A stretch of 45,502 nt of DNA, taken from contig RHPI01000008.1 in the NCBI GenBank assembly GCA_009103225.1, positions 190,911 through 236,412 of the forward strand. The letters run 5' to 3'. This DNA comes from Chlorokybus atmophyticus (lineage: Eukaryota; Plantae; Mesostigma and Chlorokybus algae). This document shows positions 3,065-45,502 of the stretch, in pieces (the first letter of the stretch is position 1; every line of letters begins with the position of its first letter). Position numbers and translations under genes: made by a program. The notes below the pieces were generated by a model. The model was not told where the DNA came from and searched no databases. It worked only from the letters and a program-made list of their open reading frames with translations.

Positions 3065-3231
3065 AAACAGGCGTAGGAGGAGAAGAAGGAGGTGAAGAAA
3101 TCAGGGAGGTGTAGGAGTCTTGTCTTGCGTGGTCGTAGTTGTTGTGGTCGGTGTAGTCATCGTGCTTGTGTTCTGGTCAAGTCCATTCCTTGTCCTTCGC
3201 GGTCCTCGTCCTTGTCCGTGTCCCTGCCAAC

Positions 3232-6150
<2,919 letters not shown>

Positions 6151-8738: not shown

Positions 8739-9202
8739 GATACTCTTTCTCAGCGGTCGGCACAGAGACGAAGGGCATTGTAAGGTGAGAGACGTCATAC
8801 CTGTCCGAAGGTTACGTAACGGTTGCCAAGGAGAAGGTGGAGGGACAGTTGGACAAGGAATCTCTTTGGTCTGCTCTTGGTCTGGTTGCCCTTGGCGTTT
8901 GACTTTGTGTCTTTCTATCGTTGTCGTCGAGCTTCGTCTACCCTCAAGGTTTGTTTGGGAGTCTCATGTTTAGCACAAGCGCTGCGTGCTGTGGACAGTA
9001 TGCTGCTGGAACCAGATTGTCAACAGAACCAGATACACACATGCATGTTCATGAATAACCCCTTCTGTGCTTCCACAGCAGCACATTCTCACTGTTGCGC
9101 TGGACAGGCAAAGGAGCTCCAGCAGATCAGAAGCAGTTAAAGGCTCGTGCGACACAACAACACTCACCCCAACCGCACAACACCTCTTGCTTCCTCGGAA
9201 CT

Positions 9203-11176: not shown

Positions 11177-11216
<40 letters not shown>

Positions 11217-11572
11217 CAGGTTCCCCCCGCATCCCTCGCGGCCCTGGCGGTTCCCTCCCCTCCTCCTCCTCCTCCCTCTCCTCCCCCGTGATCCTCCTCT
11301 CCCCCTCCGGCCGCCGTTTCCTCGCGACGGAGGGCGTCCGCGCCGCTGCCGGTCGCCAGTTCGGGTGCGATACCAATGAGATGGAGGGGGGACTGTTGGA
11401 GGATGACGGGGGGGACGCCATGGCGGGGAGTCACTGGGAGGGAGCGGTGATGAAAGGGGAGGTGATGGTCGGGGAGGCGGAGACGGGGCAGACCATGACC
11501 AACATGACACTGGCTGCGTTGTAAGCGTGGGATATGGGTGTACACCACCACACTGGGTCACATACACACGCG

Positions 11573-11623
<51 letters not shown>

Positions 11624-13301
11624 ACGATTCCGGTTGGTACCTCCCCCAGTGGTCCCTCTCCGGCTTCTCCTCTTTCGGCTTCGACTCCGGCTGCTCCTTC
11701 GCCACCGCATCAAACGCCACCACCTCCCCCTTCTATTGCGACGCGGACGCAAAGCGCACATCCACGCTGTTCAACGGCTCAACTGTACCTATGACAGACG
11801 CGTGCACGTACGACGGCACAGCCGCGGGAGCGTGCCAAACAATACCGACATACGACTCAGAAGCGATCGTCCAAGGGTGAGATTCTCATTACTGTGGTTG
11901 CTGTTGATGTTGTTGCTGATGTTGGTACCAACAGTATGGTTACTTCTACTGCAGGTATTCCAACTACCAGTGTACTGATGCTGGTGCGGGCGGTGTCACC
12001 AGCGACGTCTCTTCTCCTCGCTATTGGGGTCAGAGTTTTGGGTTGGATGCGCGTTGTTTTGGGGACGGCAGCGGCTACTGGCAAGCGCCCGGGTGGGTGC
12101 GGCCCGCGTATGGGGCCGGGTGCTACCGACGACGGTGCTTGGAGGTGAATGAAGAGGGGGATTGGACGCTGCAACTGTCACTAGGTGGGTGGACGTGTGT
12201 GTGGGTGGGTGCGTGTGTGGGTGCGTGCCCGTGCATACTCATGTGCGTGTGCGTGTATGCACGTGTGTGATGTTGCGTGCATGAGGGTAAGACTTCCTTT
12301 GACCTTTCTTCAGGTGAGGATGTGTGGTTTGACTGTGTGGACAACGAGGAGGTTGACATCAGCGGGAAAGGCGGAGGGAAGTTCTCGCACGGGACAGTTG
12401 GGCCGTGTCCCATTGCCAATGAGTACTGCAAGTTCAACAGCTGCCCCAATGACTGCTTCGCCAACGGTGGGAGTCAGTGGTGCATGTATGTGTGTGCATG
12501 AGATGGTTCAGTTGGGTTGACTATATGCGTATGTGCGTAGGCAACTGCTACCTTGGCAAGTGCTACTGCGTGCCGGGCTTCGTGGGCGAAGACTGCTCAA
12601 TTGTAAGTGGCCCAGCATCACGCACTCACACATGCACGCGTGCGTGCGCACGCACACATGCGCACACGCATATGTGCTCTTTGTGTGTTGCTCTGTGTGT
12701 TGCGTGCCTGCGCATTTGTGTGCATGCATATGTGTGTGTACGCATTTCACCGCCCCTTACAATTTGCTTCTTCTATCCTTCATGATGTCTCCATCCACTG
12801 GCAGGCTGCTTGCACCCCCGGCAGCTGCGGTTCGGCTGGCCCCTGCGACCTCGCCACCGGGTTGTGTCCAGGCCAGGCCGGCGAGGCCATATTGCCACCA
12901 CCGGCTAGCTTCGATACCACCACACCAGCACCGGCCCCCACGTCACCGCAACGGAGCTTCGTCACTAAACTCGGAGCTACCACGAGCGTGCTCGGGGTGC
13001 GATACCTTGGCGTGGCGTTCGCGGCGGGAGGGATCATTGTGTTGGCGGCTATCGTGGCTGTTTTTACTACTCGTGAGTACTACTTGTATGTTCTTATTGA
13101 TTGGGTTGCATGAAGTGAGTGCTCATGTTTGTACATGTGTGCGCAGGGTGGAGAAGGACGAAGCGGCGGAGAGGGAGAGCCATACGGATCAGTGAAAGTA
13201 GGGTGGACTTGATGGCGATGGGGATGGCGACGGAGGCCGAAGTTGGTGATGATGTTGAGGAAGCGGGCAGCACATGTAATGCACGCATACCATCCTCATG
13301 A
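9203..13301 (+). CDS. Leishmanolysin-like zinc metallopeptidase (peptidase M8/GP63/invadolysin family), multi-exon, with EGF-like domain and C-terminal TM
   Basis: Signal peptide MNTFCALVLAVLLLLTLL; pro-domain HRCAHD; WPLRI; DADFILVVT; RPTAGNANFCP; HEITHALGFS (HExxH); LLEDDGG..AGSHWE; MTLAALYDSGWY; EGF-like [51 protein letters not shown]. Introns are rich in CA/TG repeats. Confidence 0.93.
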
Positions 13302-25367: not shown

Positions 25368-28300
25368 CATGGTCACGATACGCGGTACACCCCCAATGAT
25401 GTTCCATTGTGACCAGGTACATTAGTGTAACAGTACTGTACCTTGGACGCCCAAAAGTGGTACAGTGGTACAATACCAGGATTAGGGTTTGTGAGTGCGC
25501 CGGCCCTGGGCCTGGTTGCCGGCGGGGGTTAGTGGTGTTGCTGGCGCCGGCAGTGGCGGCGCCGGCGGCTGTAAGCCTTATGCTGGCTTGGTGTGGTAGG
25601 TAGCATAGTGTAGGAGGTGACCAGCCTGTAGCCATGTCTCAAAGTCGTGTGGTTTCGCTGGAGGAGGATGTTGTCAATCATGTTGAGCATGCTGGTGAGA
25701 TTCCAGAGCATGCTGCCGCCGGTGGTGAGCGCAGGAGAGTTGGCCCGCCACGCAATGAGGTGTGGATACATTTTAACGTTAGGCCTAAGCAAAAGAGCGC
25801 CACAAACAGGAGGGATGCTGCAAAATGCAAGTACTGTGCAAAGGCGTGGGAGGATGCACGCATTCCAAAATTAGTCAGGCACATTACTTCAGAATGTACT
25901 CGTGTGAGCTCAGACATCAGGAAGTCATTAGTAGAGGGTGTAGCTTCAAGCAGGCCTGTAATGGAGACAGCAGGACAATCTGTTGACTCACGCAAACGTG
26001 TTAGAACAACACAAACCTCCCTTTCCAACATCTGCAAGTCTACTGCTATGCCATTAGCACAGCAGAAAGAGCTGGATTTGAAGTTGTTGTTGTTCTTTGT
26101 TTGTAATGCCATCTCGTTTCGTGTGGTGGACAATGTGGTTTCGAGCACTCTTATATGCTCTACATCCTGGCTACACACCGCCAAGTAAGCATTCGTTGAG
26201 TATGGGTTGGTATCTGTCAGTTTCTCTCTTGCATGCTAGCACTGTTACTCATGTACTGCTGCTGGTAGGTGCTACCATGTTGCGCACAACACATCTGACC
26301 AATGAGGCTGCGTTTGTGCACCAAACTTGTTGAGCGCATCAAGCATGAAAGCACCATCACGTTAACTATTGATGGGTGGAGCAACACCAACAATGAGAGC
26401 GTGTACGCGTGCAACATCATTTTATCAGATCGGTCAGTTCATTTGTTATCATTCTCAATCTTTCAGAAGACACGCACACCTGCGCTTACCTGGCTGGTGA
26501 GTGCAGTACTTGTTGCCAGCAATTGTCAAATGATATGTTGCACAAGTGGCTACATCGCACAAATGCACTGCATGTGTGTTCAAAAAGTGCATCGACCGCG
26601 TTGAACCCAAAAAGGTTGCAACTCTAGTCACGGACAACGCGGCCAACATGCGGTTGGCGCGCGGGTTGCTGGTGGGCTAAATCTGGCTACACGCACATCA
26701 TTGAGCTGAGGTATGCATGCTTTTCAATGCACAGTGCATTGTAAAGATGTGCAACAGCCAACATGTCTCATGCATGCATTGCTTGCAGGTGTTACGTGCA
26801 CAGCTTCTTCTTGGTGATGGGCTCTTGTATGTCACACCATTGGGCAAAACGCCTCATCACAAATGCACAAGAGGTTGTGACATACTTCAAGGCTGCGCAT
26901 AAGCCATTGGCGCTGCTCAAGATGGCAGCCAAGGCCGACGGCATCATCGGCACCCTATACTCCTCAAACAAGACTCGTTTTACATCAGTCCATCGTTGTA
27001 TTTAATCTGTTCTTCGCATGTATGATGCGCTTAGGCAGGTCTGTAGGGTACATGCGGGAGATATCAAGAACGGTGTTGTCATGGACATCGTGCGCGATGT
27101 TGATCGCGAGTTTTGGGATGGGTTGGGTGCTATTGACAAGCTTTTGCAACCCTTCACCAAGGTTATAATGGCTGCACAATGTGCGCGCACTACCCTTGCA
27201 GATGTGACGCGGTACTGGCTTTACCTGGCGCAACAGTTGAAAACGCTGGCGTCTCAGCTGCCACGTAAGTATTATCATGCCTCTTGTTAGACCTTGCTTC
27301 GTGCTATTGCATATGTAGACATGTGTGCTCATGCACATGCACAGGTGATTTTAAGGAGAATGTTATTTAAATTTTTACATGAGTCAGAGAAATGGACATC
27401 AAGTTGGCGCGACTTGCATTGTTTCTTGATCCGCGTTACAAGGGAGCAGCTACTCGTACTGAGGACATGAAGCCGCTTCATCGTGTGGTATGCAAAGTGG
27501 CAATGCATGCTTATGTGTCTGATTGCTGTAGCTCTACTCATTATGCTAGTGCATTGACATGTTGTATGATGCAGGCCATTGCAGTTATGAAAAAGCGAGG
27601 GCACAACTTGCAGGAGTGTGAGCGTTTGCTCACACAACTGGCAGAGTACAAGGCTGGCCTATCTCCTTTCAACCACCCATGTGGTGGTGACACATTCAAC
27701 TTGCGTGCTTGGTGGCTAGCTGCTGGTGCAACGCGTGCGGAGATTACCACTCTAGCCATTGTACTTCTCGATCTTGTGCCGCATGCAGCCGCACCGGAGC
27801 GCACGTTCTCCACCATGGGTTGGTTCCACAGCGACAAGCGCAATCGCATGAATGCTCTCACAACAGGAATGCTAGCTGCAGTCAAGGTGCATCACGACAA
27901 CCGCAAGCCCATGTAAGTGCAACATGTTTACCTACCACGATGCAATGCGCTTGTACTCACGTCATTGTTGATGTGTGGTAGGCTGAATGACTTTCCAGTT
28001 TGAGATGGCGTTGCATCATGCGATGAAGAAGCAATAATTGATGACGATGAAAATGAGGATGTTGTAAATGCTGAGCAGCTAGAGTCAGCATTAGATGAGA
28101 TGGTGAACGTTATTGGTGGGGCTGCTGCAAAGTTGGAGTTTGCACATGTCTCATGCACTGAGCTGGATCCCACGTTTCTTGAAGACTTTACTTTGGACCA
28201 CCCTACCATGCACCCTGCTTATCGGCCGAGTGCGCTGGAAGAGCTGCCACAAACTGTGCGCTTGGGAGAGCATATGGATAGCAACAATTTTGATGAGGAG

Positions 28301-28650: not shown

Positions 28651-31600
28651 GCGGGCGTCCTCGACCGCATTGTTGACAGGCTTGAGCACCTGTCGGCAAT
28701 AAACCACGTTACCGCCGCACAGTCTGCGGCTCAGCAGCAGGCGGGCCGTGGCCAACGCGCTCGGCCTGACAAGTTTTCAGGCGACCGCACCAAGGAAGTA
28801 CGACACTGGCTTGCCGAGCTCAGCCAGTACGCGGAGTACCATAGATGGGACGATGCCGACAAGTGCCCTGAGGTCTCCCTTTTATTAACTGGTACTGTCA
28901 GTGGTTGATTCAGTAATCAACCAATCGACATTGAAACCACCTGGTCCAAGCTCTGTGATGCATTACTTTTTGCCTTTTATGCAACACCAGCTACATCCGC
29001 CTTAGCATGGTCACATATTTTCGCCAAAAAGCAACGTGAACAGGAGACAATCACCGAGTATTTTGTGCGCTTTAATGAAGCCCTAGTGTTTGCGGATGAT
29101 AGTCTGATAGAAAAGACCGAAATTGGTTTGTTTTTAACCACCGTTAAACCACATTATAGCGACAGAGCAGCAACAGCTCAAGCTAACACAATCAAGGAAG
29201 CATTTGCATCAGCAAGGAGGGTGGAAGCAACAATGAATGATTTACAGATCAGTCAGTTGCCCAAAGTGACTTTAAATGCACAGCCAATTGCTCCGAGACC
29301 CCACAGTTAGTTTAACCGCTTACAGCCATGCCAATTTGTTGCCAACAATGGTGGCAACGTACGCCGCTTCACGTTTGTGGCAAGTCACGTCATGATGGCT
29401 ACCAGTCATGTCAGCATGCACAGCAGCGTCCCATGCTGAAATCTAATCAACAGGGGGAACCAGATGTTGTAACTGCAAACCGATATGGCCATTATGCCAA
29501 TAATTGTTGCTTGACAGGCCGCCGCAAGCAGCAGAACGCCATGCTTACTGCCGGCGAGGAGGACACGCCGCTCATCACTTAACTTTACGTTCAAGCAGTG
29601 ACAAACGCGGCAGCAGCAGCTAGAGGCGTATTCACCGTTTATAGCAGGTTTGAGGACAAGCCTGTGAACATTCTTTTGGACACTGGCTCGTCAATTTCGT
29701 CGGTATCCTCTGCCTTCGCCAAGCTTGGCTTGCCAGGCACATCTGCCTCACGTATTACAGTACAATTCAGTGACGGCAACAAAACGCTGATTCCTCTACT
29801 TCCTGCTCAGCAACTCTCCTCAGTGGGGAGGAGTACACACAACGTTGGCGATTCCGAATAGTGCCAACTCAATTGTTTGACGTGGTCCTCGGCACCAACT
29901 GGCTAAGGGCGACGGACTGCAGCGTATCTGCACATGCACTGTAGATCCCTGACGGGACAGTGGCAGAGCTGTCACCTCCGACCATCGTGTGTGCTGCTGT
30001 GTCGACTGCTCAGACACTGACAGCTTCTCAAGCTGCGGCCACAGCTCCATCCGTTCTGACAGCACTCATGCACGATTTTGCCGTGCTGTTTAAGGCGCTA
30101 GACCCAAACAATGACACTGACGCTGTACAACACGTCATTGACACGAGGGACAAAGGGCCGGTTACCGTCAGACAGTACAGGCGCTCAAGTCAAGAACATT
30201 TTGATTGAAGGTCTTGTCAAAGATCCACTTGAGGGGGCCTTTATAGTTCCATCCTCTTCGGAGTGGTGCAGCCAGGTTGTTCTTGTTGACAAGCCTAATG
30301 GCAGCAAACGTTTCTGCATCGACTACCGTGCTCTGAACGATGTGACAGTCAAAGCCAAGTATACTCTGCCTAGCATAGATGCTATGTTCAACAAGCTGCA
30401 AGGATACAACGTATTTTCCAAAGATGGATGCGGCCTCTGGCTTTTAGCAAGTACGCATGCATCCTGACAGCCGCACCAAGACAGCATTTCAGACGATCTC
30501 AGGTCTGTACGAGTGGATAGTAATGCCTTTCGGCCTATGCAACGCGCCAGCAACTTTTCAACGCCTTATGCACAGTGTCCTACATGACCTGCTTGTTGGT
30601 ACTTATCTTCCTTAACGACATCCTCGTCTGCTCACACAACGAAGAGGAGCACGCTGCTCACCTACGACAAGTGTTTGAGCGGCTAAAAGCAGCAGGCATC
30701 GTACTCAAGCCTACGAAGTGCCTATTCGTTGTGTCAATGTCAAAGTTCCTTGGCTTTATCAGGTCTTCAGAAGGCCTGCGCGCTGACCCTGACAAGACTG
30801 CTGCCAAAGTGAGTACCCTTAACCTTAAGGTGTCAAGGCAGTACGTCATTTCCTTTGCAAGTGTGCGTTCTACGCACGTTTCGTCCCTGGTTTTACTACC
30901 GTGTCGGCACCCTTGCGTGCCCTTATGTGCAAAGACGTTGCCTTTGACTGGACAAAGGAGTGTCAAGTTGCATTCGTTCAATTGAAGACGGCCTTGGCCT
31001 CTGCACCCCTGCTTCACTTCCATGACTTTACAACAAGCTTTGTGCTACGCACGGACCGAAGCAATTATGGGCTCGGACTTGTGTTGCTACTCTCGCACGC
31101 ATGATGCGTATGCGCTGTTGTTGTTCGCGTCACGCTCGTTGATCACGGCGGAGAAGAACACCACGTCAAAGCGCGAGTGTCTCGCGGTGGCGTGGGCATC
31201 CAACAAGCTTCATCCCTACCTACATGGTGCGGATGTGCAACTCGAGACCCACCATACCGCATTTGTGTAACTCTTGCGCACTAAGCAACCTAAGGGCCGC
31301 ATCGCGCGTTGGGTGTTGTCGTTGCAAGCTTGCAACTTCACTATCTCGCAACGGTCAGGAGCATTGTGTGGTGATGTTGACGCGCTCTCGCGCGCGCCGT
31401 TGATAATATTTAAGCATCACGCTTGGTGTTGGAAATGCCATCACGCAGGCCGCGCAGCAACATCGCACATTTCACAACAACTAGCAGTGACAGCAATGCA
31501 CATCGGCAACAGCCTGAGGGAACGTAGTGGGAGTACTGCACAGACTTCACAACCTGCAAGTTCTCCCCCTGGCTACTCATCCTTCATTGCTGACCTCTAC

Positions 31601-33228
31601 CAAGAACTCCATGCTGGCTCTTGCAACCCTACTGAGCCCTATGAAGACAACCACAGCACCGGCGCCCTCGCCGCTGCTCCTGAGGCGTTGCCGGCCTTGC
31701 TGTTCAAGACATCGCCAGCACCGCCCCTTCAGCGTATTCTGCTCCAAAATAAGCGGAATACGCCATCTCCGACGGTAGGGACAAGTCCGTCACCTTCCTT
31801 TCTTCCTGCTCTTCCGGACTTACTACCTAATTGGCCACCGCCGCCGCTGGCCTCGCCACAGACGCCACAAACCACGCCGCCGCCGACTTCCTAGCCCAGT
31901 CCAACCAGGCTAGCCCTGCCCAGCGTAACCGAGTTACGCGAGGCCCAGATATTGAACTCTGCGATATCTAAGGTCCGGAATATCTTGGAAGCTGACGTTG
32001 CAGGTAGCATCCCCAGCAAGTACAGTCTACCCCTTTTAAGAGCATACCCTTTTTTCTCCGCTATCTTGTGCTCTTGGCAGGGTAATTCTCTTGACGTCCA
32101 AGAGCACGTTATGCTCTTGGGTGTCAAGAGCATAAACATGCTTTAAGCGCGGTTTCATCATGCCCATCACGCCCGTTACGTCACGCGCATCACGTCACGT
32201 TCGTCGCGTCGTTACCTTAATTACGATGATTGCGCATCATACCTTGCCTATCACGCCCTAATCGTCACACTCATCACGCCTTATGCCACACCCGTCACGT
32301 CTCCTCCCTCGATGCCAGGAATATACACACTCAAACTTGCAAATTTAATGAAAAAAAATATGCTCTTCGCGGTTAGTCATATTCTCTGAAGCACCAACAT
32401 TTGTTTGTAAAACCATTGATGATCTCACATTCTATGCTGTTAGCGGGGTTAGTCTCTTGGAGCGAAGTCTCTTAGCGGGGCTAGATTGTACCTTGATTTC
32501 GTACTCGGTACACGGCGCGCCTGATATAGGCAAATCTGCCGTACTCGCGCGTGCAGGATTTAACGTGCGCCTCCTCATTCCGGCGCACTACAAGCAACTT
32601 GATCTGGCCGCCTGTCATAATGACCCATTAATAGGCCACCTAGGCTTTCACAAAACCTCGAAGCGCGTGCGCTCATCGTACTTTTGGCACGGCTTTCGCG
32701 CGAACGTGCACAACTTTGTCAAATCATGTGACACCTGTCAGCGCCACAATAATGCTCACAATCGCGGGCCTGCTTCAGCCAAGCACTGTTACCGAACCGT
32801 TCGATCTGCTGGGTTGGGACATTACCGGTCCTTTGCCAACGTCAGTAAACGGCAATCAGTACATCATTGTGTGTTCAAAGTACGTGACACGCTGAACAGA
32901 GACGGCACCCATCGCTGCTGTTAATGCTGACACTGTGGCATCTTTTCTCCTCGTCATCATCAAATGCCACGGCTGTCCCCAAAAGATTTTATCTTTATGG
33001 ATTATGGCTCTTATTTTACCGGTGATGTGATGGCGCGCATCGCCAATGCCCTTGGCATTGCACAAACTTTTCACCGCATCGTACCAACCTCAATAAGACG
33101 GCTTGATTGAGCGTATGAACAGAACGCTCAAGCGAAAAACTGCCAAGTTTATCAACGAGTTCCATAACAATTGGACCACATTTTCGGGGCTGTGACCTTT
33201 GCATACAACACCAAAGACTATTTGTGAA
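28648..33228 (+). mobile_element. Ty3/Gypsy element A, heavily decayed internal region (gag-CCHC-PR-RT-RH-INT)
   Basis: gag RPDKFSGD...VRHWL; CCHC remnant at ~29463-29510; LLDTGSS protease; KRFCIDYRALN; IARWVL...DVDALSR; CHNDPLIGHLG...CDTCQ; FAYNT. Many stops and frameshifts; no LTR identified. Confidence 0.88.
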
Positions 33229-33755
33229 TGTATCAGCACCACCATCGCCGGTGATGCCCCTTCAATCCTCTACCCCAACACCCACACCGCCCATGACAAG
33301 CCTTTCAACGGCGTGGCCGCCACGGAGCAGCGAACTGAAAGTGCCTAACATCAGTTTGATGTGACCTTTTATATCAAGAGTATATCAAACATATACCTCT
33401 CGATAACTAACTCACAGCTAGACATCGACCCTACAGATAAAGTGCTTAGGAAATCTAGCGTGAGCAAATCACAGCTTGGATAAAGTACCTATCAATTAGG
33501 TACCTATCGAGAGATACCTATCGTAAGGTACATAACGAGATAGTGACCACATTATATCAAATATGACACTAAATAGGCTTTCATAAGCGGTTCTACACCC
33601 ATTGAGACTTATTTAAGCTATGATAAAGCATCATAGCCTTTAATAAGCGAGGAACCGTAGAAAAGAGGTATAAATAAGCATATTTAGGTACTTATTTATA
33701 CAGAATGCGTTATTTAGGTAGCAATAGTACCCCTATTATTATTGCTCCCGTTACA
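33229..33755 (-). repeat. 3' LTR of element B (527 bp, TGTAAC...TACA), preceded by PPT AAGTGGGGGGGAA at 33756-33768
   Basis: TG...CA termini on the minus strand, adjacent purine tract, and homology to 39510-39840. Confidence 0.85.
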
Positions 33756-34096: not shown

Positions 34097-37000
34097 CTGG
34101 CGGTGGTGGAGGCTGTGTTCTACCGTTTAAGCGGTAAGGTTTTAACAAGTTTACATGGAACGTTTTGTATACGCACACTTGCGGGCAATTGCAGTCGATA
34201 AGCGTGCATACCAACTCTATCAGTGATAGAGAAAGGACCTAACCATCGGGGCAGCAACTTGCGAGCACCCGTACCTTTAATGGTTATGTTTTTTGCGTTA
34301 AGCAAAATTGTATCGCCGACATCGAAAGTGGCCATTCTTCGATGTGTATCAGCATAAGCTTTCTGCCTGTCCTGTGCTTCTGACAGACATAGCTTGGCTC
34401 GAGCCAAAGCAGCCGCAGCATTGCCTCTTGCATATCAGTAGCAAATTCCTTTGCCGCTGGTACAGTCAGGGCGTTGCGAGGTACACGCAATGACGCTGGT
34501 GTGTTCGGGCGAATCCCATAATTCAAAAAACGGGGTTTCCTTTACACTTCTTGCCACGCGTTGTTCACAGCGAACTTTTGCCATTGGCAAGTACCTGTCC
34601 CAATCAGCATGGTTTGGAGCCACATAGTGGCGAAGCATTTCTTCTTGTATTTGATTTGCTCGCTCAGTTTGTCCATCCGTTTGCGGGTGGAAAGCAATCG
34701 ACATTTATGTTTTACCCCCAACAATTCACAGACTTCTCTCCAAAACTTGGAGACAAAACGAGGATCACGAGCTGTGATAAGCTCACGCGGTACACCGTGA
34801 ACTCGAAAGACCGTTGACACAAACAAATGTGCCAAGTCCCGTGCACTCACAACTGTGCAACACGGGGCAAAATGCACCATTTTTGTCAAACGGTTGACAA
34901 AAAGCACAATAGCATTGTATTTGGCTGCTGTTCTAGGTAGGTCAGTAATCAAATCCATACTGACACTATCCCACTTTTGTTCTGGAAATACCGTGGTTTA
35001 AGCAATCCCGTTTGTTTTTGTCGTAGTGGCTTATTACGTTAACACACGTCAAATGTGCGAGTATATTGATCCACATCAGCTGACATTGACGGCCACCAGT
35101 ACATCTGTTGCGCAGCTTTGAGTGTTTTGTGTTTCCCCAAATGCCCAGCATATGGCGGGGTCATGCACTGAATGTAAGCATTGCGTACACAAGTCGCTCG
35201 AGTTGGGAATTGCCAACTGCTCCCCTTTACACCACAGATTGCTAACAGTAGTAAGCTGTTGTAAGTTGGTTTGACCGCTAAACCAATCATCTGAGTTATA
35301 ACCTGTGGACACTTCCTTTAGGAAAGGATCTCCAGGCTGTTGCACATTACGCGTACTTTGAGAGCGCGTAAGTGCCAAAAGAGCAGGGCTACGACTTAGT
35401 GGATCCGCCACATTGGTGCGACCTGGACGGTATTGCCAAGTGAAAGTAAAATGAGAAATGAATTCATTCCACCTAGCTTGCCGCCTCGGCAGGTTCTGTT
35501 GCGTATGAAAGAATGTGAGCGGGTTGTGATCAGTAATCACTGAAAACTGCACACACCTTCCAAATAGCAACGCCATGTGCGCAGCGCGCGCACCACCCCA
35601 AGCAATTCCTGCTTAGTGGTTGTGTAATTACGTTCAGCAGGACTGAACTTTTTGCTATTATATGCACATGGTCTGTCATCCTGTAGAAGGACTGCCCCGC
35701 ACCTAATGGTGGAAGCATCACTGATCACTACAAAAGGCTTGGTGTGGTCGGGGAAGGCTAACACAAGGGCTAGTGTTAATGCATCCTTGATGCGTGTAAA
35801 AGCAACCTCGTGTGCCTCCGTCCACACAAATTTAACATCTTTTCTCAGTAAAGAGTGTTAAAGGATTTGCCATGCTAGAATATGCTTGCATGAACTTGAA
35901 ATAATTGGCTAGCCCCAAGAAAGCACATAACTGATGTACATCCTTGGGTGGTGGCCAATCCTTCACCGCACACACATTTTGAGGATCTGGTTTCAATCCT
36001 TCCTTTGCCAATCACATGCCCTAAAAAGGGTAGTTCATCCTTTGCAAAACTGCAATTGGACAGGTTGGCATAGAATTTGTGTTCGCGTAACTTAGCTAGA
36101 ACCAATTCCACATGCCTGTGGTGGTCCTCCCAGGTTTTGCTGAACACAATACGAGGAATATGTCGTCAAGATTTACAAGTACAAACGTGTACAATTCATC
36201 AGCAAATACCGCGTTTATTGCTGTTTGAAATATAGCCGGTGCATTTGTTAACCCACATGGTAGCACTTTATACTTAAAGTGTCCTAGTGGGGTGCGAAAT
36301 GCAATTTCTTGTAAATCCGACGGGTGGATTTTGATCTGATGATAACCACTGGTTAAGTCCAGTGTGCTGAACACTGTTGCACCTGACAGCTTATTAAACA
36401 AATCATCCATCCGAGGCAAAGGGTATCTGTTTTTCACAGTTACCTAGTTCAACGCACGGTAATCAATACACATGCGTAGCTTGCCATTCTTTTTGGGCAC
36501 AAACAAGATTGGCGCACAAAAAGAAGATGTGCTCTTTGTTATTAAACCTTTGTCCAATAACTCTTTGAGCTGTTTTTCCATTTTCGTGTGTTCTAAGGGA
36601 CTTAGCCTATAGATAGGCCGCCAAGGTGGCTTTGCCCCCTCTTCCAACGGAATGGTATGATGTATGTTTCTATCAGGAGGCAATCCCGGGAGTTCATCTT
36701 GAAAAATTATCTGCATATTGTTCCGTAAGTGATTGCACTACAGGGTCAGTTACGGCCTGTTTAACAGGTGTCTCTACCTGTCGTAAGTGCATAAAATATA
36801 CTTCCTCACGGTTGCGCACGCAACGTTTCAGTTGCATAGCAGAGAGGAGCGGAACATTGTCGCGAGCAACACCTGCGAGTACAAATGCGATTAACGTCAC
36901 CTTACGTTTACCCTTACGAAGGGTGCACGTATTTGCTCAAGAGTCCAATTGCAAACCTGCTTCGGTGTGCCACTGTTCACCCAAAATAACATCCACCCCG

Positions 37001-37650
37001 GGGATACCTATATCCATTACGATCAAAGTTGGTCGAGTCTTGTGGCTATTAATAAAAAAACGCCCCTTCACCTCCCCAATTGCATTAAGGGTGGGACTAG
37101 CAGCACGTACATACGACGCGACTGGTGTGAAAGGTATGATAGTACGTTTCACCCAAGCATGTTCAACAAAGTTATGGTTTGCACCAGTATCAATCAATGC
37201 TGTACATGGTGTACCCATAAGTTTACTCTTAAATCTCCATTTGAGTGGCACTGAGTGACCATCGAATGTAGCTAATGTCGGAGTGCCGTGATTGGTAGCA
37301 GGCTTGATAAAGATCACTTGCAACGGTGAAGCTCCTGTATCCTTGCGTGAGAGTTGCATAATTACTTCTCCCCCTTTCAACAATCACGACCACGGGCCAT
37401 GATATTGAGGGATAACTACACATGCAGTGACAGCATGTTGTAATTGCAACTCGTGTAAGTGCTTAACAGCAGTTACTAATTCAGAGAATAAAACATTGAT
37501 TAAAACACAACCGTTTGCATTTGTCAACACAGGTGGCGTGCTCATATTAGTCCATACATCTAATACATCACAAAAAGAGGAAACTTTATCAAGAAGTACA
37601 GAGTTTTTAAAGTCGTTCTGCTCGACTAAGCTACCAACCACGGACAATTC

Positions 37651-38859
37651 CTATTTTTTGCCCCTCCGCTGCTTGGCCATCTGTGCATTCTGCTTTGCAT
37701 AGCACTTGGCCTTCCCATGACCTGTCTTCTTGCAGAAACTGCAACTGATGATGGATTTGGCCGCGTCGTAGGGGCCAGCAGAATGAGATGTTTTCGCCTT
37801 TTTCACAAAAGGTTTGTTATTAATGGCCGGGCGCTTTGCAGCTGAAACCGGGGCTGCCTCTTTTGCTGTGGTTTGCATGTTTGCGTAAGAGCGCTTCACA
37901 CTGTCCACAGCCGCAACCATCTGCATCAGCATTGGTAAATCCGTCGAGGCCCACTCTTGCAAACTCGCGGGGTTGACGGCCACATGCTGCACGAGGTCTG
38001 TGTCCAAGCCACGCCTGAACATGACCAGCTGATCAGCATCACTAATAGGTAGTTTGCCAGCATTGATCTTGCTGATAAACACCTGAAAATCTTGGATATA
38101 CTGCTGAACCAGATGCTCGTTCTGACGCAGATTGTGCAGCTGGTTGCGAGCAACCTTGGCAGGATCTGCGCCACCATAGCGCTGCTCCATGAAAGAGCAC
38201 AACTGATTCACTTCCCGCCCGAGGTTCGCATCCCGTTGCTTACGGCGGTACCATTCTGCCAGAGCATCGCTTGGGATCAGCAACTCAGATACACGCAACT
38301 TCCCCTCCTCAGAAATGTAAAGGGAGTTGACATAGTGTCTCAGCTTTACGAGCCAATCAAAAATTGCCGCTTGTTTGTTGGGAACAAACTCGGCAGATCG
38401 AGCAAGCGCCTGAACAGGTGGACCACTGACAGAGCGTTGAAGGCGCTCGATCATGTTCAGAACACGTTTGCCTTCACCCATCGATCCCTCCCAATCTCGC
38501 CCCATAGAGGTGGTGAGCTTTGAGATATGTTCCGCCACATGAAAGACGAAGCTGACGAGCGAGACAATCGCCTCACGAGGCTCCTCATCATAAGTGCCAA
38601 GAAAGTGGTCCATCAACTCCTGTTTTGTCAAGCAAATTGAGATTCCAGGCTGCACGAATGATGGTGGTAGTGGTGGCCCGTTTGGTTCCACCAAGCCATC
38701 CACATCCTTAGCAGCATGAGACTCATCAGGTGCATCATCCGGGTTGAAAATATCCTCCATAGATGAAAACTCCTCCTCACGGGATAATTGCTCGTTTTGC
38801 GAGCTTTCCCCTTTGAGGTGGGCACCGAGTTCTCTTCCATTCGTTTGCAAAATAGGCAA
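37651..38859 (-). CDS. gag: Gag of element B (402 aa, open, C-terminal CCHC knuckle)
   Basis: IFDWL...A.EWY...ARNQLHNLRQ...VQQYIQDF...FRRGL...CSFCKKTGHGKAKC. Confidence 0.88.
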   Translation of the reverse strand: MPILQTNGRELGAHLKGESSQNEQLSREEEFSSMEDIFNPDDAPDESHAAKDVDGLVEPNGPPLPPSFVQPGISICLTKQELMDHFLGTYDEEPREAIVSLVSFVFHVAEHISKLTTSMGRDWEGSMGEGKRVLNMIERLQRSVSGPPVQALARSAEFVPNKQAAIFDWLVKLRHYVNSLYISEEGKLRVSELLIPSDALAEWYRRKQRDANLGREVNQLCSFMEQRYGGADPAKVARNQLHNLRQNEHLVQQYIQDFQVFISKINAGKLPISDADQLVMFRRGLDTDLVQHVAVNPASLQEWASTDLPMLMQMVAAVDSVKRSYANMQTTAKEAAPVSAAKRPAINNKPFVKKAKTSHSAGPYDAAKSIISCSFCKKTGHGKAKCYAKQNAQMAKQRRGKK

Positions 38860-39349
38860 AATGGAATGGTGAGAACCTCATCAATGGATCAGGTTCAACG
38901 AGAGGATAGAAATGACCCCAAGTTGTGAAAGTCTCCCAAACAGAGTCCAAACCAGTCCTCAAAACAGGAAAGGTTGGATCTGGTGTGTCACCAAACACAA
39001 CAAGTCTGAATGGGACCAGAATGTCCTAACCCTGTGTTGTCCTTAGCCAAGTCCCAATCTCCAGGCTGAATCTAGAGGGGGAGGGTTTCAGACTAACAGT
39101 GTTTGGGAACAGAATGTCCTAGAACCTCCCCAAAACTGTTCTAACCAAGTCCCGATCTCCAGGCTGAAGCGAGAGGGGGAGGGTTTGGGAACAGCTTGGT
39201 TTGGAACTTACGGACCCGAGTCAAGCGACCCGGAAAAGCAGCTCACACGTGGAAAGGCCGCCTCTTTGATGGGTGGCTTCAACATGGAGGTAGCGCAGGG
39301 AAGCTAACTTGAAGCTTGGGCTGCGTGGACGAATAGGAAGCCGCCGCCT

Positions 39350-39512
39350 TCTGATTGGCCGAAAGCAGGTTGCCGCCCCCTATAAGTATCCACGTCACCC
39401 CCAAGCTCCTGGATACCAATGTACGACGGTGGTGCTGTTACATTGGTATCCAGGAGCTTGGGGGTGACGTGGATACTTATAGGGGGCGGCAACCCGCTTT
39501 CGGCCAATCAGA
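39350..39512. repeat. Near-perfect inverted repeat with 74-bp arms and a 15-nt loop
   Basis: 39350-39423 is the reverse complement of 39439-39512 with one mismatch. Confidence 0.95.
39405..39418 (-). promoter_or_regulatory. Primer-binding site of element B (TGGTATCCAGGAGC, iMet-tRNA-like core)
   Basis: Follows the LTR end ...TACA+T. The first 7 nt match the canonical TGGTATC(AGAGC) iMet PBS. Confidence 0.65.
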
Positions 39513-39840
39513 GCACCACCGTCGCCGGTGATGCTACTTCAATCCTCTACCCCAACACCCACACCGCCTATAACGAGCCTTTCAACGGCGTGGCCGCCAC
39601 GGAGCAGAGAACTGAAAGCGCCTCACATCACTTTGATGTGACCTTTTATATCAAGAGTATACTGAATATATACCTCTCGATAATTAACTCACAACTAGTC
39701 ATCGACCCTACAGATAGGGTAGTCAGGAAATCTACCGTGAGCCAATCACAGCTCAGATAAGGTACCTATCGATAAGGTACCTATCAAAAGATACCTATCG
39801 TAAGGTACCTGACGAGATAGTGATCACATTATATCAAATG

Positions 39841-40970
39841 TGTCGTGCCTGTCATGGTCGAGGGCAACCTTGTCTCGGACAGGCTGCAGAGGAGTGCTAG
39901 TGCTGCACGCATGCTAGTGCCGGGCACTGCATTGGAGTCATGCAAGCAAAAGACAACCCCCCACTCGTGGGCATAGGCTTGAAGATGAGCCTACGCGGTG
40001 TTTAGTGCAGTGGACGAGCCGATGTTGCTCGCCACCTTTGTGTACAGACTGTGTCGTAGTGCACACAGTCAACAAGCCACTACGATAGGTAGTGCTGTGG
40101 ACACAGTTCTTTGCATGAGTGGATAGAATGATACACTGTTAAGTGAGGTGAATGAGTGTGCAACACGTGGATACAACACCCTGACTACTGAAACAACACA
40201 CCACCGTCAAGCTCACAGCAATGGCAGGCACAGCGCACAAGAGCATGCACCGTGTCTCACGCAGTAAGGGAATTCTTGGCAACCGGGGCAGCGTGCTTCC
40301 AGTTCAAGTCGCTTCACAAGCTCTTTAGAAGCAGAGTCTTTACTTCTTAGTACTCCTAGTACTCACAGTACTCACTTACAGTGTCACCAGCCAGTCTGGT
40401 GACGTGACTTCCTACTTATACATGTCAAATCATGACTGTGCAGTGCCACGCGGGCACTAGGCCAACGGTCACATCGAGGCCTCATGCTATTTCGGAAATC
40501 TCCTAAGACTTGATATAGCACATGTGTTCTTAACAGACTTGCAACTGATCAGCTACGCGCGGTCCCTACAGACAGGTCTATAAAGTAGCCCTAGCTACAT
40601 GCTACATGAGTGATACAGTAGCTAGCAGTAGGCTGGGGCTCGCGCGGTCTTCATGCTGGTAGCCCGGGCGTGGGGCTGGGTGTAGGCATGCTTGAGAAGA
40701 ACTGGCATGCGAGGGTAGATGGCATGACAGCTGTCGTGCCTGTCATGGTCGAGGGCAACCTTGTCTCGGACAGGCTGCAGAGGAGTGCTAGTGCTGCACG
40801 CATGCTAGTGCCGTGCACTGCATTGGAGTCATGCAAGCAAAAGACAACCCCCCAATCGTGGGCATAGGCTTGAAGATGAGCCTACGCGGTGTTTAGTGCA
40901 GTGGACGAGCCGATGTTGCTCGCCACCTTTGTGTACAGACTGTGTCGTAGTGCACACAGTCAACAAGCCA
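39841..40970 (-). repeat. 3' LTR of element C (1130 bp) with 239-bp direct repeats at both ends (39841-40079, 40732-40970)
   Basis: On the minus strand it begins TGGCTTG right after the PPT and ends CGACA. The two 239-bp copies differ at only a few positions. Confidence 0.75.
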
Positions 40971-41016
40971 CCCCCCCTGAGATTCTGGGGTAGCCCTCTG
41001 CTCCAGAACTCAGTTC

Positions 41017-43953
41017 CTACCGACTGTGTGGGGGACCGTTGATGCGGCAGTCATCGCACCAGTACTCCCACAAGGGTACTGCGTCCAGTGGAGGGTCAAG
41101 GCAGTAGCAGTGCATGCCTTGATTACAGCCATCGCATAACATCATCAATGGGTCGTCGTCGGCGCTGCCACACTTCTCGCATCGGGTGCTGCGCAGCGGA
41201 CGCGGGTGCTGGATCTGGGTGAAGCCAGCAATGTAGGGGAGATGACAGGGCGCACAGTTGACCATGTTGTCCTTCATGCGCTCGCCTCGTTGTCCCAACA
41301 GGTCCAGTACCCCTGTGGGGTGCACCTTCAATACCTTGTAAACAGCACGCCCGACGGAGGTATCGAGGGTGTCGCGTGTGGACGCCATACGGTAGACGAA
41401 GTCTCCTGACTCGAAGCGGCGCTCCCGCTCCTTGTAGAAACCACTGCGCACACGCTCGTAACGCAGCGTGTCGCGGTGCTGCGCGATGCGCAGGTTGTTG
41501 AAGGCCATGGGGACTGTGTGTTCGAACAGCGCACTGCGCACTGTCAGATCATACAACATCTCGTCGGGGTTATCGAGATTGTCCACCACTCTGTCGACCT
41601 CCTGCTGTGCGCGGAAAGGGAGCAATGGCTGCCTTCCGAACAGTAGATAGTATGGGCTGTACTCTCGCAGGGCTGCCTGCTTGGACAGCCGGTAGCCCAT
41701 TGCTACCCATGGGAGGTGATCATCCCAGGTATTCTTCTCGTAGGCGAGGACGTACTTGCGCAGTGCCTTCTTGATGGTCTGCACGGTACGCTCGGCGAGG
41801 CCGTCGGCCTGCGGGTGGTCGCGTGAGGTGCGACGGTGGTCGATGAAGCATCTGTCGATAAGCTTGTCGAAGGCTCCTCTGAACTCCGTACCCTGGTCGG
41901 TGATGACTTCAGCGCAGCTGCCGAAGCGTCCGAGTACATGGGAGAGGAAAGCCTGGGCTACTCCCTCACTGCTCTTGTCGGGCAGGGGCACCAGCTCCAC
42001 CCACTTGGAGAAGTGCTCGATCATGACGAGGATGTAGCGGTTGCCTCGCGCTGAGGGCGCTAGGTCTCCGAGGATGTCCAGTCCCCAGCGGTAGAACAAC
42101 CCGGAAATGGGAAGGGGATGCAAGGTGGCATTGCGCGTGTTGAGGCTGGCGCGAACCATGTCACACTGCTGACAGTTGCTGACGAACTCCCGCACCTGTC
42201 TGTGCACCCCATACCACCAGTACTGGGTCCTGACCAGGCTGACCGTGCGCTTGACACCGAAGTGCCCGAGCTCGGTGTGAAGGGAGGAGATGATGCCTTC
42301 ACGTGCAGCTGGTGTGGGGACCTCCTGATCTGCATCTTGTATCCGTCGATACAGCCTGTCGTTGGCCCAGCGGTAACGCTGAGTGCGTTGCCGGACGCGG
42401 TCCTTCTCGCGTGCGCTCATGCCTGCTGGAAGTTGTCCAGTCTGAAGCAGTGCGAGCGATGGCTCGTCCAGCCAGATGTCTTGTCGTGTGTCGGTGGGTG
42501 CCAGCTCCTCGTCATCCACCTCAGGGTCGGCAGCGATTGCTTCTTCTGATAAAGGATCGGTGGTGGTGATGGCGGGCTCGAGAGCGGGCATGTCCCCGTC
42601 TGCTGCTGCCTCAGCGATCTGAGTCCTGCGTCCTGAGCGTAGCGCAGCGACAGCGAACATGGTGGCCACACCTGAAGGTGCAGCTGTAGGACCCAACTCA
42701 TGTCGGGCGCCTGTGGCGTCGTTGGTGCTGAGGTGGGGGTTACGGCTGAGGCCATCCGCATCCTGGTTGGCAAGGCCTGCGCGGTGTTCCACCTCGAAGT
42801 CGTACTCCTGGAGCAGCAGCGCCCATCGTGCTAACTTTCCTGTCAAGTGCTGGTTGTTCATTAGCCACTTGAGGGGTTGATGGTCAGTGACCAGTTGGAA
42901 CTGCCGTCCAAACAAAAAGGGTCGGAAGAAGGAGATGGCCCACACTGCGGCGAGGCACTCCCCTTCGTAGCTGCTGTAGTTGGCCTCAGCACTGTTGTTG
43001 CTGCGGCTGGCGTACGACACTACGCGCTCCTTCTTGTTGGTGTCATGCTGTACGAGCACGGCCCCCATGCCGAGCTTGCTCCAGTCTGTGTGCAGGATGA
43101 ACGACCTGGTGTAGTCAGGGCGTTGCAGAATGGGAGCTGTGGTGAGGCGGAGCTTCAGTTCCTGAAAGGCCTCCTGTTGTGCCTCCTTCCACACGAACTC
43201 GGTGTCCTTCTTCAGTAGTTCGTTGAGAGGCCTTGCGATCTTGGCAAAGTCTTTGACAAACCGTCGGTAATAGTTGGCAAGGCCGAGGAAGGCCCGCAGC
43301 CGCGTGAGGTCTGTGGGGGCAGGGATAGCCACCAGTGCTTCCACTTTGGCCTGCTGTACGTACACACCATGGGGCACAATCATATGTCCTAGGTAGGGTA
43401 CCTTGTGGGTGAAGAAGGTGCACTTGTCAGGGTGCACCGTCATCCCGACTTCCTTCAGCCTCTGTAGCACCTCTTCGATGTGCTGGAGATGCTCCTCATT
43501 GCTGTGACTGAAGATGAGGATGTCGTCGATGTAGCAGCGCGCGAAGTCCAACCCCTTGAGGGCTTTGTCCATGACGCGCTGGAACTTGGCCGGAGCGTTC
43601 TTCAGTCCGAAGGGCATGACCTTCCACTGGTACAGCTGCCTGTTTCCCCAGAAGGAAGTCTTGCGCTTGTCCTCCTCCTTAATGGCGATCTGGTTGTACC
43701 CTTGGCGCATATCCAGGATACTATAGACCGTGCAGTCTCCTACATCGTCAAAGATGCCTTCTGCGGTAGGCATCGGATACCTGTCCTGCTTGGTCTTGTT
43801 GTTGAGGGGGCGATAGTCGCCACACATGCGCCGGTCTGTCCAGTTGCCTGCTGAATCTTTCTTCAGGGGCATGACGGTCGCGGCCGCAAAGTCCGATGTG
43901 AACTCCTCGATCAGGCCTGCATCTAGCAGCGCCTTGCACCTCCGTTCCACCAA
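41017..43953 (-). CDS. pol: Pol of element C: RT, RNase H, integrase and C-terminal PHD finger (978 aa, open)
   Basis: RRMCGDYRPLN; YIDD; LHTDWS; LARWALLLQ; HTELGHFG...CQQC; WGLDILG, TDQGTEF and AERTVQ (DDE); PHD CEKC...LCDGC...HCYC...WCDDC. Confidence 0.95.
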   Translation of the reverse strand: MVERRCKALLDAGLIEEFTSDFAAATVMPLKKDSAGNWTDRRMCGDYRPLNNKTKQDRYPMPTAEGIFDDVGDCTVYSILDMRQGYNQIAIKEEDKRKTSFWGNRQLYQWKVMPFGLKNAPAKFQRVMDKALKGLDFARCYIDDILIFSHSNEEHLQHIEEVLQRLKEVGMTVHPDKCTFFTHKVPYLGHMIVPHGVYVQQAKVEALVAIPAPTDLTRLRAFLGLANYYRRFVKDFAKIARPLNELLKKDTEFVWKEAQQEAFQELKLRLTTAPILQRPDYTRSFILHTDWSKLGMGAVLVQHDTNKKERVVSYASRSNNSAEANYSSYEGECLAAVWAISFFRPFLFGRQFQLVTDHQPLKWLMNNQHLTGKLARWALLLQEYDFEVEHRAGLANQDADGLSRNPHLSTNDATGARHELGPTAAPSGVATMFAVAALRSGRRTQIAEAAADGDMPALEPAITTTDPLSEEAIAADPEVDDEELAPTDTRQDIWLDEPSLALLQTGQLPAGMSAREKDRVRQRTQRYRWANDRLYRRIQDADQEVPTPAAREGIISSLHTELGHFGVKRTVSLVRTQYWWYGVHRQVREFVSNCQQCDMVRASLNTRNATLHPLPISGLFYRWGLDILGDLAPSARGNRYILVMIEHFSKWVELVPLPDKSSEGVAQAFLSHVLGRFGSCAEVITDQGTEFRGAFDKLIDRCFIDHRRTSRDHPQADGLAERTVQTIKKALRKYVLAYEKNTWDDHLPWVAMGYRLSKQAALREYSPYYLLFGRQPLLPFRAQQEVDRVVDNLDNPDEMLYDLTVRSALFEHTVPMAFNNLRIAQHRDTLRYERVRSGFYKERERRFESGDFVYRMASTRDTLDTSVGRAVYKVLKVHPTGVLDLLGQRGERMKDNMVNCAPCHLPYIAGFTQIQHPRPLRSTRCEKCGSADDDPLMMLCDGCNQGMHCYCLDPPLDAVPLWEYWCDDCRINGPPHSR

Positions 43954-43961
43954 GTCTTCTT

Positions 43962-45502
43962 CTAGCTTGGAGAGGCGGTACTGTCTTCTGACACCGGTTC
44001 GGTGTCCACTAGTTCAATGTCCATCTGGTATGCTGAGCAGATGCCCAGCTCCTTCACACTGAAACTGAATTGGCTCCTCCACTTGTTGAGGAGAGCATCG
44101 AGTTGCTCTCGAGTCTGGCCTGTGGCCAGCGGTCCAATGGCGTGGGACCATGAGGTAGCGTTGGCGACCACTGGAATGTCTTCCACAGTAACTGCTGCCT
44201 GCTCCTCCATGTGGGCGGTCTCGAGGGCGGTGTGTGCTGCTTTGGTCTCTGAAAAGCGAGCAATCCACCCCCCAGCCAGGTGTTCGAGCTCCGAGAAGGA
44301 CACATGGCGATCCTGGAGAGCAAAGCACATTTCCAAGTACCAAACCATGCTGTTCTGATCCATGGCGCGCCCCAACAACTGACATTGTTGACTGGTTGTC
44401 AGCGTGGAGCCTGTGATGCTGCTTGGAAAGAATCCCATAGCACGCTCGCGCTCGCGGGCATTGGGTTCTTCCAGCTGTCCAGTGTTGGAGTCCAACACCA
44501 TGCCGTCGCCTGCATTGCGGAACGCGTAGGAGCCTGGATAGGATACTAGTGTGGGTAGCGCGCGGCGCGGCTGACCAGGCTGGTTGCACTGGTAGAAGTG
44601 GTGGTGGTCAAGGCGTGTGACTGGTTGCGCTGTGCGTCCAGGGTCTAGGATGTCATCGACGACGAGATTTCGTGGCCAATTGCTGTATAGGTACTCTGCC
44701 AGAAACAGGTCTTCCACAATGGCCAGGTTGGTCCATTTGGCGCGGACGCGGTGTGCACGAGATCCATGACGCGCGGCGTTGATTTTGAGAGGATGCCCCA
44801 GCAAGGAGCATACTTGCCGATAGGCCTTGGCGACGTGGTGCCGCTTGTCATCCTCGGAGTGCACATTCTCGATGATGTACCCCAAGGGCCTAGCGATCTG
44901 ACTGATCTGTAGGAGTTTGATGACTCGCATTAGCTCCCAGAACAGCTGTGAGCGAGGATCCGAGAGCCCTTGGCCTCTGCCTGCCCTGGAGTGCCCTTGA
45001 CACTCCCACCCTGCTATCAGCAGGTCAATGTTGCCGACTGCCTGCAGGTGATCCTTGGTAATCCAGCGGATGTCCTGCGGTAGAGCCTTCTGGCTCCCTT
45101 GCAGTGCCGACAGCGGTAGCTGCTGCGGGTAGCGCTGGTGCAGCTGTCGTAAATGATGGCTCAGAGCCTCCTGTGCATGAGGGTCAGGGTCACAGTAGAG
45201 GTACTTGGTGACTGTTGTTCCTGTGTTGAGGACAGCCGCAAGCCCACTGCCTATGCCTCCGAACAGCTCCAGCACGGTGATGCCTTGTTGTCGGCGGAAC
45301 ATGTGGAACTCCACAACTCCCGTAGCTATGTGGTACTGCTCCTGCACTGTAGCCTGGTCTTTGTAGGCAGGGAAGTGTGCAGTGAGCTGAGGCCTGGTCA
45401 GCAGCATGTGTGCTGCTACTTGTGCGCTCCAGCGACGCTCGGATGGCTCCTGAAAGGCCACTTCTTTGGTGACAGTCTCCTGAGACTCATCGTACGGTGT
45501 AG
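43962..45502 (-). CDS. C5-cytosine DNA methyltransferase domain in the element C polyprotein (reading frame stays open to the window end)
   Basis: Motif I VLELFGGIG; IV IAGWECQGHS; VI YIIENV; VIII AHRVR; TRD LPTLVS; IX ERERAMGF; X LLGRAMD. The upstream codons TPYDESQETVTKEV contain no stop. Confidence 0.92.
   Translation of the reverse strand, partial: TPYDESQETVTKEVAFQEPSERRWSAQVAAHMLLTRPQLTAHFPAYKDQATVQEQYHIATGVVEFHMFRRQQGITVLELFGGIGSGLAAVLNTGTTVTKYLYCDPDPHAQEALSHHLRQLHQRYPQQLPLSALQGSQKALPQDIRWITKDHLQAVGNIDLLIAGWECQGHSRAGRGQGLSDPRSQLFWELMRVIKLLQISQIARPLGYIIENVHSEDDKRHHVAKAYRQVCSLLGHPLKINAARHGSRAHRVRAKWTNLAIVEDLFLAEYLYSNWPRNLVVDDILDPGRTAQPVTRLDHHHFYQCNQPGQPRRALPTLVSYPGSYAFRNAGDGMVLDSNTGQLEEPNARERERAMGFFPSSITGSTLTTSQQCQLLGRAMDQNSMVWYLEMCFALQDRHVSFSELEHLAGGWIARFSETKAAHTALETAHMEEQAAVTVEDIPVVANATSWSHAIGPLATGQTREQLDALLNKWRSQFSFSVKELGICSAYQMDIELVDTEPVSEDSTASPS

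Follow-up and report, generated by a model that had tools for sequence, protein, structure and literature searches.

The window, which is the whole stretch of Chlorokybus atmophyticus DNA analysed here (45,502 nt of contig RHPI01000008.1), covers the 3′ portion of a young Gypsy-type retroelement that likely primes its own reverse transcription, circularizes its cDNA, and inserts after its integrase has cut at two integrase-type ends paired inside the element, with a DNA methyltransferase (DNMT) encoded before the reverse transcriptase (RT) and a PHD finger after the integrase. The probability of this reading is put at about 0.6. The 5′ end and the second flank lie outside the window, and gag and protease, judging from relatives, would also lie beyond its edge. 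An initial annotation had described a young Gypsy element carrying its own C5-cytosine methyltransferase upstream of RT, which is supported here; it overlooked the joint between repeats B and A, the split repeats, the self-primer, and the PHD finger, all of which are less known than the methyltransferase. With odds slightly better than even, the element represents a Gypsy clade spanning the green lineage (streptophyte algae, bryophytes, and chlorophytes), characterized by integrase sites inside the LTR, self-priming, and an obligatory end-joined circle that is opened at an internal palindrome. If true, this would be a third mode of LTR-element integration and would account for the DIRS-like repeats, for which the 2018 report had no explanation. 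It also gives a precise, testable model of a DDE-integrase element with split repeats, in which 2-LTR-type circles are required intermediates and not dead ends. Coordinates of the features are collected in Table 1.

Table 1. Features of the element and its insertion site, in window positions.
Feature	Position	Strand	Remarks
5′-truncated DNMT frame	43962..45502	-	512 aa; start codon not in view
DNMT3-like C5-methyltransferase domain (predicted, ~44300-45290) and linker to RT	inside 43962..45502	-	
FGGIG	45263-45249	-	C5-methyltransferase motif
GWECQG	45011-44994	-	C5-methyltransferase motif
ENV	44870-44862	-	C5-methyltransferase motif
RVRAKW	44750-44733	-	C5-methyltransferase motif; RxR of the initial annotation
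ERERAMGF	44453-44430	-	C5-methyltransferase motif
LLGRAMD	44378-44358	-	C5-methyltransferase motif
One-base frame break, DNMT versus RT frame	43985..43995	-	From frames; extra base in contigs of runs X1, X2, X4
Second Pol frame	41017..44013	-	998 aa; RT, RNase H, integrase zinc finger (HHCC) and core, PHD finger
YIDD of RT	43533-43522	-	From sequence
C-terminal PHD finger	~41181-41047	-	Profile match; in the chromodomain's place
Polypurine tract (PPT; A then seven G)	40971..40978	-	Abuts B1; predicted plus-strand primer
Repeat B1	40732..40970	-	239 nt; ends CACGACA; from repeat comparison
Internal joint CACGACA-GC-TGTCATG	40723..40738	-	Two integrase-type ends, right then left, abutting across a 2-nt spacer
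Repeat A, second copy (A2)	40080..40729	-	650 nt; begins TGTCATG; holds TATA-like box, hairpin, predicted self-primer
TATA-like box	40420-40414	-	From sequence; in repeat A
Hairpin	40403-40383	-	From sequence; in repeat A
Predicted self-primer	40374..40388	-	15 nt; complementary to sequence after A in the family's 5′ copy (loose ends)
Repeat B2, element 3′ terminus	39841..40079	-	Ends CACGACA; 238/240 identical to B1
Host-repeat target	39512..39842	.	Uninterrupted copy at 33235-33680 (empty form seen at 33540-33680)

All six C5-methyltransferase motifs named in the initial annotation were found 5′ of RT, in order and in one minus-strand frame (45500 to 43962) that is open at the window edge. 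A profile search against PF00145, proposed there as a check, gave a match of 43.7 bits over a cut-off of 22 (E 3.1e-11). Among solved structures, DNMT3C and DNMT3A were the top sequence matches to the domain (E 3.5e-7), and a profile built from 49 relatives ranked DNMT3A (5.5e-24) above DRM-type enzymes (2.5e-13 to 1e-9) and M.HaeIII (5.6e-9) in the PDB. The predicted model has a pLDDT of 93.7, and all 32 Foldseek matches listed are DNMT3A, DNMT3B, or DNMT3C, with a best E of 1.3e-19. The motif order is unrearranged and the catalytic residues are kept; across 79 aligned DNMT domains, the cysteine, ENV, and RxR are near-invariant. In sequence and in predicted structure, the enzyme is a DNMT3-like C5-methyltransferase. 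Its motif IV reads E-C instead of the usual P-C, and because the glutamate is common to 26 of the 79 aligned relatives (51 have proline), it is not decay private to the window copy. The idea that the methyltransferase came from phages or bacteria found no support, viral contigs giving only short matches (27-56%) that were placed as an outgroup in the DNMT tree. CG depletion does not set the element apart from its neighbours within the window, as the observed/expected ratio is 0.59-0.80 in the element and 0.50-1.03 in neighbouring sequence, and the depletion is not stronger in the element.

Downstream of the methyltransferase, the window carries the Gypsy order RT-RNase H (RH)-integrase (INT) with a DDE integrase, followed by a PHD finger closest to those of KMT2D/C, UHRF1/2, BAZ2A/B, and ATXR5. 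Several PHD fingers of these kinds read unmodified histone H3 tails. The two Pol frames overlap by about 50 nt and are offset by one base near 43990. The DNMT domain itself is intact, but the earlier claim of almost no decay passes over the reading frame, the methyltransferase and RT being separated by this break. Contigs of run X1 (depth 89 of 93.7), X2 (61.6 of 61.6), and X4 (5 of 5) have an extra base near 43990, run X3 having no coverage there; the window may itself derive from X1 or X2. As the extra base occurs in contigs of three runs, the break reflects a defect in this copy or an error in its assembly, and not a programmed shift. No slippery run was seen at 43990 and the break is absent from other contigs, so a programmed -1 frameshift was rejected. 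The window family has a single DNMT-RT frame, and the break is private to this copy or its assembly.

The insertion is young, because its two B repeats, identical at 238 of 240 positions, differ at only two. Run X1 yielded 562 contigs in identity bands from >99% down to <90%, which suggests many related copies of the window family, contig depth not being a copy number. Of the 18 listed differences across both frames that could be classed, 12 are silent, as are three of the four in the DNMT frame.

Relatives of the element are widespread, with 80 longer proteins matching the DNMT domain at identities of up to 50%, under names including Marchantia, Calypogeia, Closterium, and Mesostigma; the best Pol match, from Coleochaete scutata, reaches 53%. 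Long relatives of 2300-2811 aa read (CCHC)-PR-DNMT-RT-RH-INT-(PHD) in one frame, and the Klebsormidium nitens protein P0130 (GAQ92009) has the window's order DNMT-RT-RH-INT. A second group, type II, reads RT-RH-DNMT-INT-PHD and includes the chlorophytes Hariotina and Tetrabaena. In the RT tree, a quick midpoint-rooted tree of 44 hand-picked rows out of 103, types I and II split with an SH-aLRT of 100, and the window groups with bryophyte and Coleochaete sequences at 96. The window and the K. nitens element fall on the same side of that split from type II (SH-aLRT 100 in this quick midpoint-rooted tree), a side that also holds rows lacking a DNMT. The DNMT tree gives the same grouping with weaker support and places both in the type I group (0.89). 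The methyltransferase is part of the element and not a separate gene: it lies within single-frame Gag-PR-DNMT-RT-RH-INT(-PHD) proteins in relatives, and the RT and DNMT trees agree. Type II forms one side of a well-supported RT split and shares the joint motif, so either the DNMT changed place or it was acquired on two occasions. Tetrabaena retains a DNMT remnant only, and Hariotina members end in a weak Tudor-like match. Intact-looking relatives without a DNMT also occur inside type II; clusters lacking the domain are those of P0426, P0131, and P0122. None of this sort turned up when viral contigs were searched. An Atlas search added only PF00145 clusters, the first of which is eukaryotic and mostly streptophyte. 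The host range, including liverworts, Closterium, Coleochaete, and chlorophytes, is far wider than in the text of the 2018 report, and chlorophyte members have a second DNMT position.

Several minor observations accompany these groups. Members of type II are P0039, P0231 (Hariotina reticulata), P0168 (Tetrabaena socialis), and loci L071-L110, which share the joint motif. In 17 of 18 type I loci with a shared frame (including L056, L057, L059, L061, and L285), an in-frame TAG or TAA followed by CAA or CAG separates DNMT from RT; in the window this region is free of stops. Five of the 17 stop contexts fit CAR-YYA, the readthrough signal of tobacco mosaic virus (PMC2754532). In the bryophyte members such a stop is likely read through, which would yield abundant Gag-PR-DNMT and rare RT-IN. 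Two more distant Gypsy proteins, P0172 and P0184, have the PHD finger before the integrase, and P0172 also lists the adenine-methylase family PF05869.

The 3′ end of the element, read on its own strand, runs from the Pol stop through PPT, B1, GC, A, and B2 into the host repeat. Two identical terminal LTRs of the canonical kind are absent, the window's 3′ end being B-A-B and relatives beginning with A alone. Of the A-coding-B-A-B layout, the window shows the 3′ B-A-B and the 5′ A comes from loose ends only; the whole form is seen in locus L115. G-runs also precede B1 in L115, L283, and L086. Contigs of X1 and X2 continue as the empty site at 39842, and contigs leave the window at 40067, after A and 13 nt of B (four in X1, two in X2). 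These loose ends are read as a probable 5′ copy, A1, running into the internal region, and relatives also show A1. Because the A copies stand without a flanking target duplication, standard LTR finders likely mis-bound such elements.

The internal joint recurs beyond the window. Among the best 80 of 122 loci from one metagenome-contig scan, 40 include the integrase C-terminus, and 14 of these 40 carry the joint core CGACAGCTGTCA no further than 4 kb past the integrase (at 0.46-3.2 kb), a single mismatch being allowed, although loci in such counts partly belong to one family and are not all independent (e.g. L079 and L084). The phage DNA control gave one match to the core in 1.74 Mb. In the other 26 loci the core is not within 4 kb, most of them ending too early; in L094 it lies at 4.2 kb, a compensated palindrome, CGTCA-GC-TGACG, takes its place in L086/L087, and in L076 and L077 it was not found despite 3.5-3.8 kb of downstream sequence. 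All joints listed, including the variant palindrome, have a CG at the same position in the B end, the exception being the decayed B1 of L115. Three of the 26 loci without the core in that range (L069, L070, and L081) stop directly after B1, without A2-B2, which may reflect a double cut, a B1-B2 deletion, a mirror form, or assembly collapse. About 760 stretches in 596 Gb of prokaryotic genomes and 27 in viral contigs also fit the joint pattern; apart from L162, the one locus of 147 with RT or integrase, these are chance matches. The pairs L162/L285 and L283/L286 are plant-like retroelements of this clade on two contigs of a bacterial genome bin; they are likely contamination of the bin, and because such plant-like contigs sit in a bacterial bin, the database labels their RT cyanobacterial.

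Locus L115 is complete, reading AAGG, A1 from TGTCATG, coding region, PPT, B1, GC, A2, B2 to CACGACA, and AAGG, with A copies that are only 92% alike. In its bryophyte-like family, all eight distinct 5′ ends lie at TGTCATG, as does that of L073. Both insertions with two visible ends carry a 4-bp target duplication (AAGG in L115, CACA in the rearranged copy L109), and such duplications flanking TGTCA...CGACA insertions are of the kind that DDE integrases produce. The A2|B2 joint brings together the A end at the primer-site edge and the B start at the PPT edge in all four families examined (window, L115, L283, and L086/L087), bluntly or via 7-14 nt of shared sequence, the L086/L087 joint being read from an assembly loop. 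This joint varies within one family, between L115 and the rearranged L109, and L283 has a further B-GC-A-B block. Collapsed contigs read pol-PPT-B-GC-A-gag, and L089 closes on itself, a closure that follows from assembly and is no proof of circles.

These loci bear on the view that the element is an ordinary two-LTR Gypsy retrotransposon, its B-A-B block being a product of assembly or of one insertion beside or within another, and its methyltransferase a separate or passenger gene. Such a view would accommodate the frame break between methyltransferase and RT in the window, and short-read contigs do collapse these repeats; however, the identical joint is found in many distant loci, L115 has the whole form with diverged A copies and a target duplication, single-frame Gag-PR-DNMT-RT-RH-INT proteins exist, and the trees agree. 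It is largely refuted and is considered very improbable.

Within repeat A, the predicted self-primer is the 3′ arm of the hairpin and lies 32 nt past the TATA-like box, a layout matching a putative tRNA-free primer of the Tf1 type. In five of the 12 related loci tested, inverted matches of 12-17 nt with differing sequences were equalled in no more than 1 of 40 shuffles; matches in L073, L078, and L090 were not above chance. The self-primer is weak in L060, L087, and L095, and L094 was too short for the test. In Tf1/sushi elements and Tcn1, the RNA 5′ end is likewise predicted to pair with a primer site behind the 5′ repeat, without a tRNA (PMC7175516, PMC6317226). Those elements are described as having two ordinary LTRs, whereas the window has split repeats and a DNMT, and the comparison is one of layout, not of RT kinship. 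Tcn1 and most chromoviruses are also described as carrying a chromodomain, in contrast to the PHD finger that follows the integrase in the window.

Beyond the anatomy, the steps of the proposed route are inferred. In A1, transcription would start about 30 nt past the TATA box, and the RNA 5′ end would pair with the sequence just behind A and prime the minus strand, as in Tf1. Ordinary strand jumps would then produce a linear cDNA with the unit B-GC-A, the working LTR, at each end. Host end-joining of the right end (primer-site edge) with the left end (PPT edge) would close a circle containing the observed A|B joint, for which end-joined circles of a Drosophila LTR element offer a precedent (bioRxiv 2022.09.25.509424). 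A staggered integrase cut after CA on both strands, at the palindrome beside the primer site, would generate the termini, the 2-nt spacer, and the order A-coding-B-GC-A-B. The weakest steps concern the two chromatin domains: the DNMT, packaged in the particle, would most likely methylate CG sites, either in newly made cDNA or where the element inserts, as the 2018 authors proposed, and the PHD finger may tether the complex to histone H3 tails. Since the circle would hold two equal joints, a mirror product is expected, and none of the eight distinct 5′ ends in the bryophyte-like family is of the mirror form; this is the main gap in the route.

The absence of mirror ends among those eight would be explained if no circle formed, the B-A-B block instead being copied from a transcript running through B2 in the style of the DIRS model, with the integrase only trimming the left end at the internal joint. 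The 2018 paper itself compares the repeats to those of DIRS elements (PMC5890265). Copying of this kind requires priming at the RNA 3′ end, yet the primer site is directly behind A1, and it leaves unexplained both the position of the A2|B2 joint on the predicted cDNA ends in four of four families and the difference in that joint between L115 and the rearranged L109. This alternative is regarded as unlikely.

A still less probable role for the DNMT, and a doubtful one, is that it guards the internal joint, with one-strand CG methylation of CGACA blocking the integrase at the joint that must survive and thereby deciding which way the circle is opened. Some cause is required for the lack of mirror forms, the CG keeps a constant place in the B end of the joints listed (the decayed L115 B1 excepted), even in the variant palindrome, and DNMT and joint co-occur in both domain orders. 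That CG may be a mere integrase contact, however, and relatives without a DNMT exist; one of them, P0426 (2191 aa), whose cluster (P0129) lies inside the DNMT-bearing type II clade, counts against the DNMT's part in the main reading, as do the undetectable activity of the K. nitens domain in yeast and the unremarkable CG depletion of the element.

The class of methyltransferase-bearing Gypsy elements is already published, and the window element is a further Gypsy-DNMT3 member of a separate family. The initial annotation had pointed to a report by de Mendoza et al. in 2018, correctly: KnitGypsy-Dnmt3 of K. nitens is described as having a DNMT3 in the Gypsy Pol frame, DIRS-like repeats, and purifying selection (PMC5890265). 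It resembles the window element in its unrearranged DNMT3-type domain within the Pol frame and in its A-coding-B-A-B layout, of which the window shows the 3′ part, and it is separate in family, the window DNMT scoring 185 bits to K. nitens and 286 to Marchantia. No mention was found in the main text of the 2018 report of a PHD finger, the integrase-end joint, self-priming, members from land plants or chlorophytes, or a replication route. A literature search in which subscription journals were thinly covered likewise found no description of the joint inside the repeat unit or of a circle route, and none of self-priming Gypsy-DNMT3 elements or of their land-plant or chlorophyte members. De novo methylation by the K. 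nitens DNMT domain was undetectable in yeast, a result the authors call inconclusive (PMC5890265), and a young copy of a seemingly multi-copy family offers more promising material for that unsuccessful assay. REXdb Phygy and Selgy were considered as possible names for this clade and set aside as probably different, given their tRNA primers and the absence of any extra domain from their entries.

DIRS elements share more with the window than repeat layout, since SymbioDIRS-Dnmt3 also combines A-coding-B-A-B with a DNMT3 in Pol, and CG methylation by these Symbiodinium enzymes was demonstrated in yeast (PMC5890265). DIRS elements use a tyrosine recombinase, whereas the window has a DDE integrase and a PPT, and relatives have 4-bp duplications; no recombinase family was found in the eight long relatives scanned. 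Cutting of abutted ends in a circle by a DDE enzyme is familiar from circle junctions of the IS3/IS30 type. Foamy-virus integrase is also reported to cut the palindromic junction of abutted ends in 2-LTR circles (Delelis et al. 2005, PMC1180852). That junction consists of the joined outer ends, whereas the junction proposed here is part of the repeat unit's own sequence, and the outer ends, once joined, come to lie within the element. EpiLTRs resemble the window as LTR elements with a DNMT and a chromatin-reader domain, but they are described as combining DAM with a chromodomain and an enzyme sister to DNMT4, which in Cymbomonas sits at the 3′ end of pol; the window lacks this set (bioRxiv 10.64898/2026.05.21.726589). 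The authors of that 2026 preprint set EpiLTRs apart from streptophyte Gypsy-DNMT3, a term they keep; a 2025 paper also refers briefly to Gypsy-DNMT3.

The remainder of the window contains further repeats and genes. A near-perfect inverted repeat at 39350-39512 (74-nt arms, 99% identity, 15-nt loop) adjoins the host repeat entered by the element, and one X2 contig skips 39423-39512. A decayed ordinary Gypsy element occupies 34500-38877 on the minus strand, with gag, protease, and RT pieces and many stops, and plus-strand regions at 30500-33200 and 25600-27916 hold RT/RNase H/integrase fragments and the remains of a disrupted hAT transposase. The window also has N gaps and long microsatellites of CA and TC, as expected of a draft eukaryotic assembly. 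Two genes lie on the plus strand, a membrane-protein gene at 3157-5867 and an intron-rich gene at 9000-13200 for a leishmanolysin-like (M8) peptidase (PF01457).
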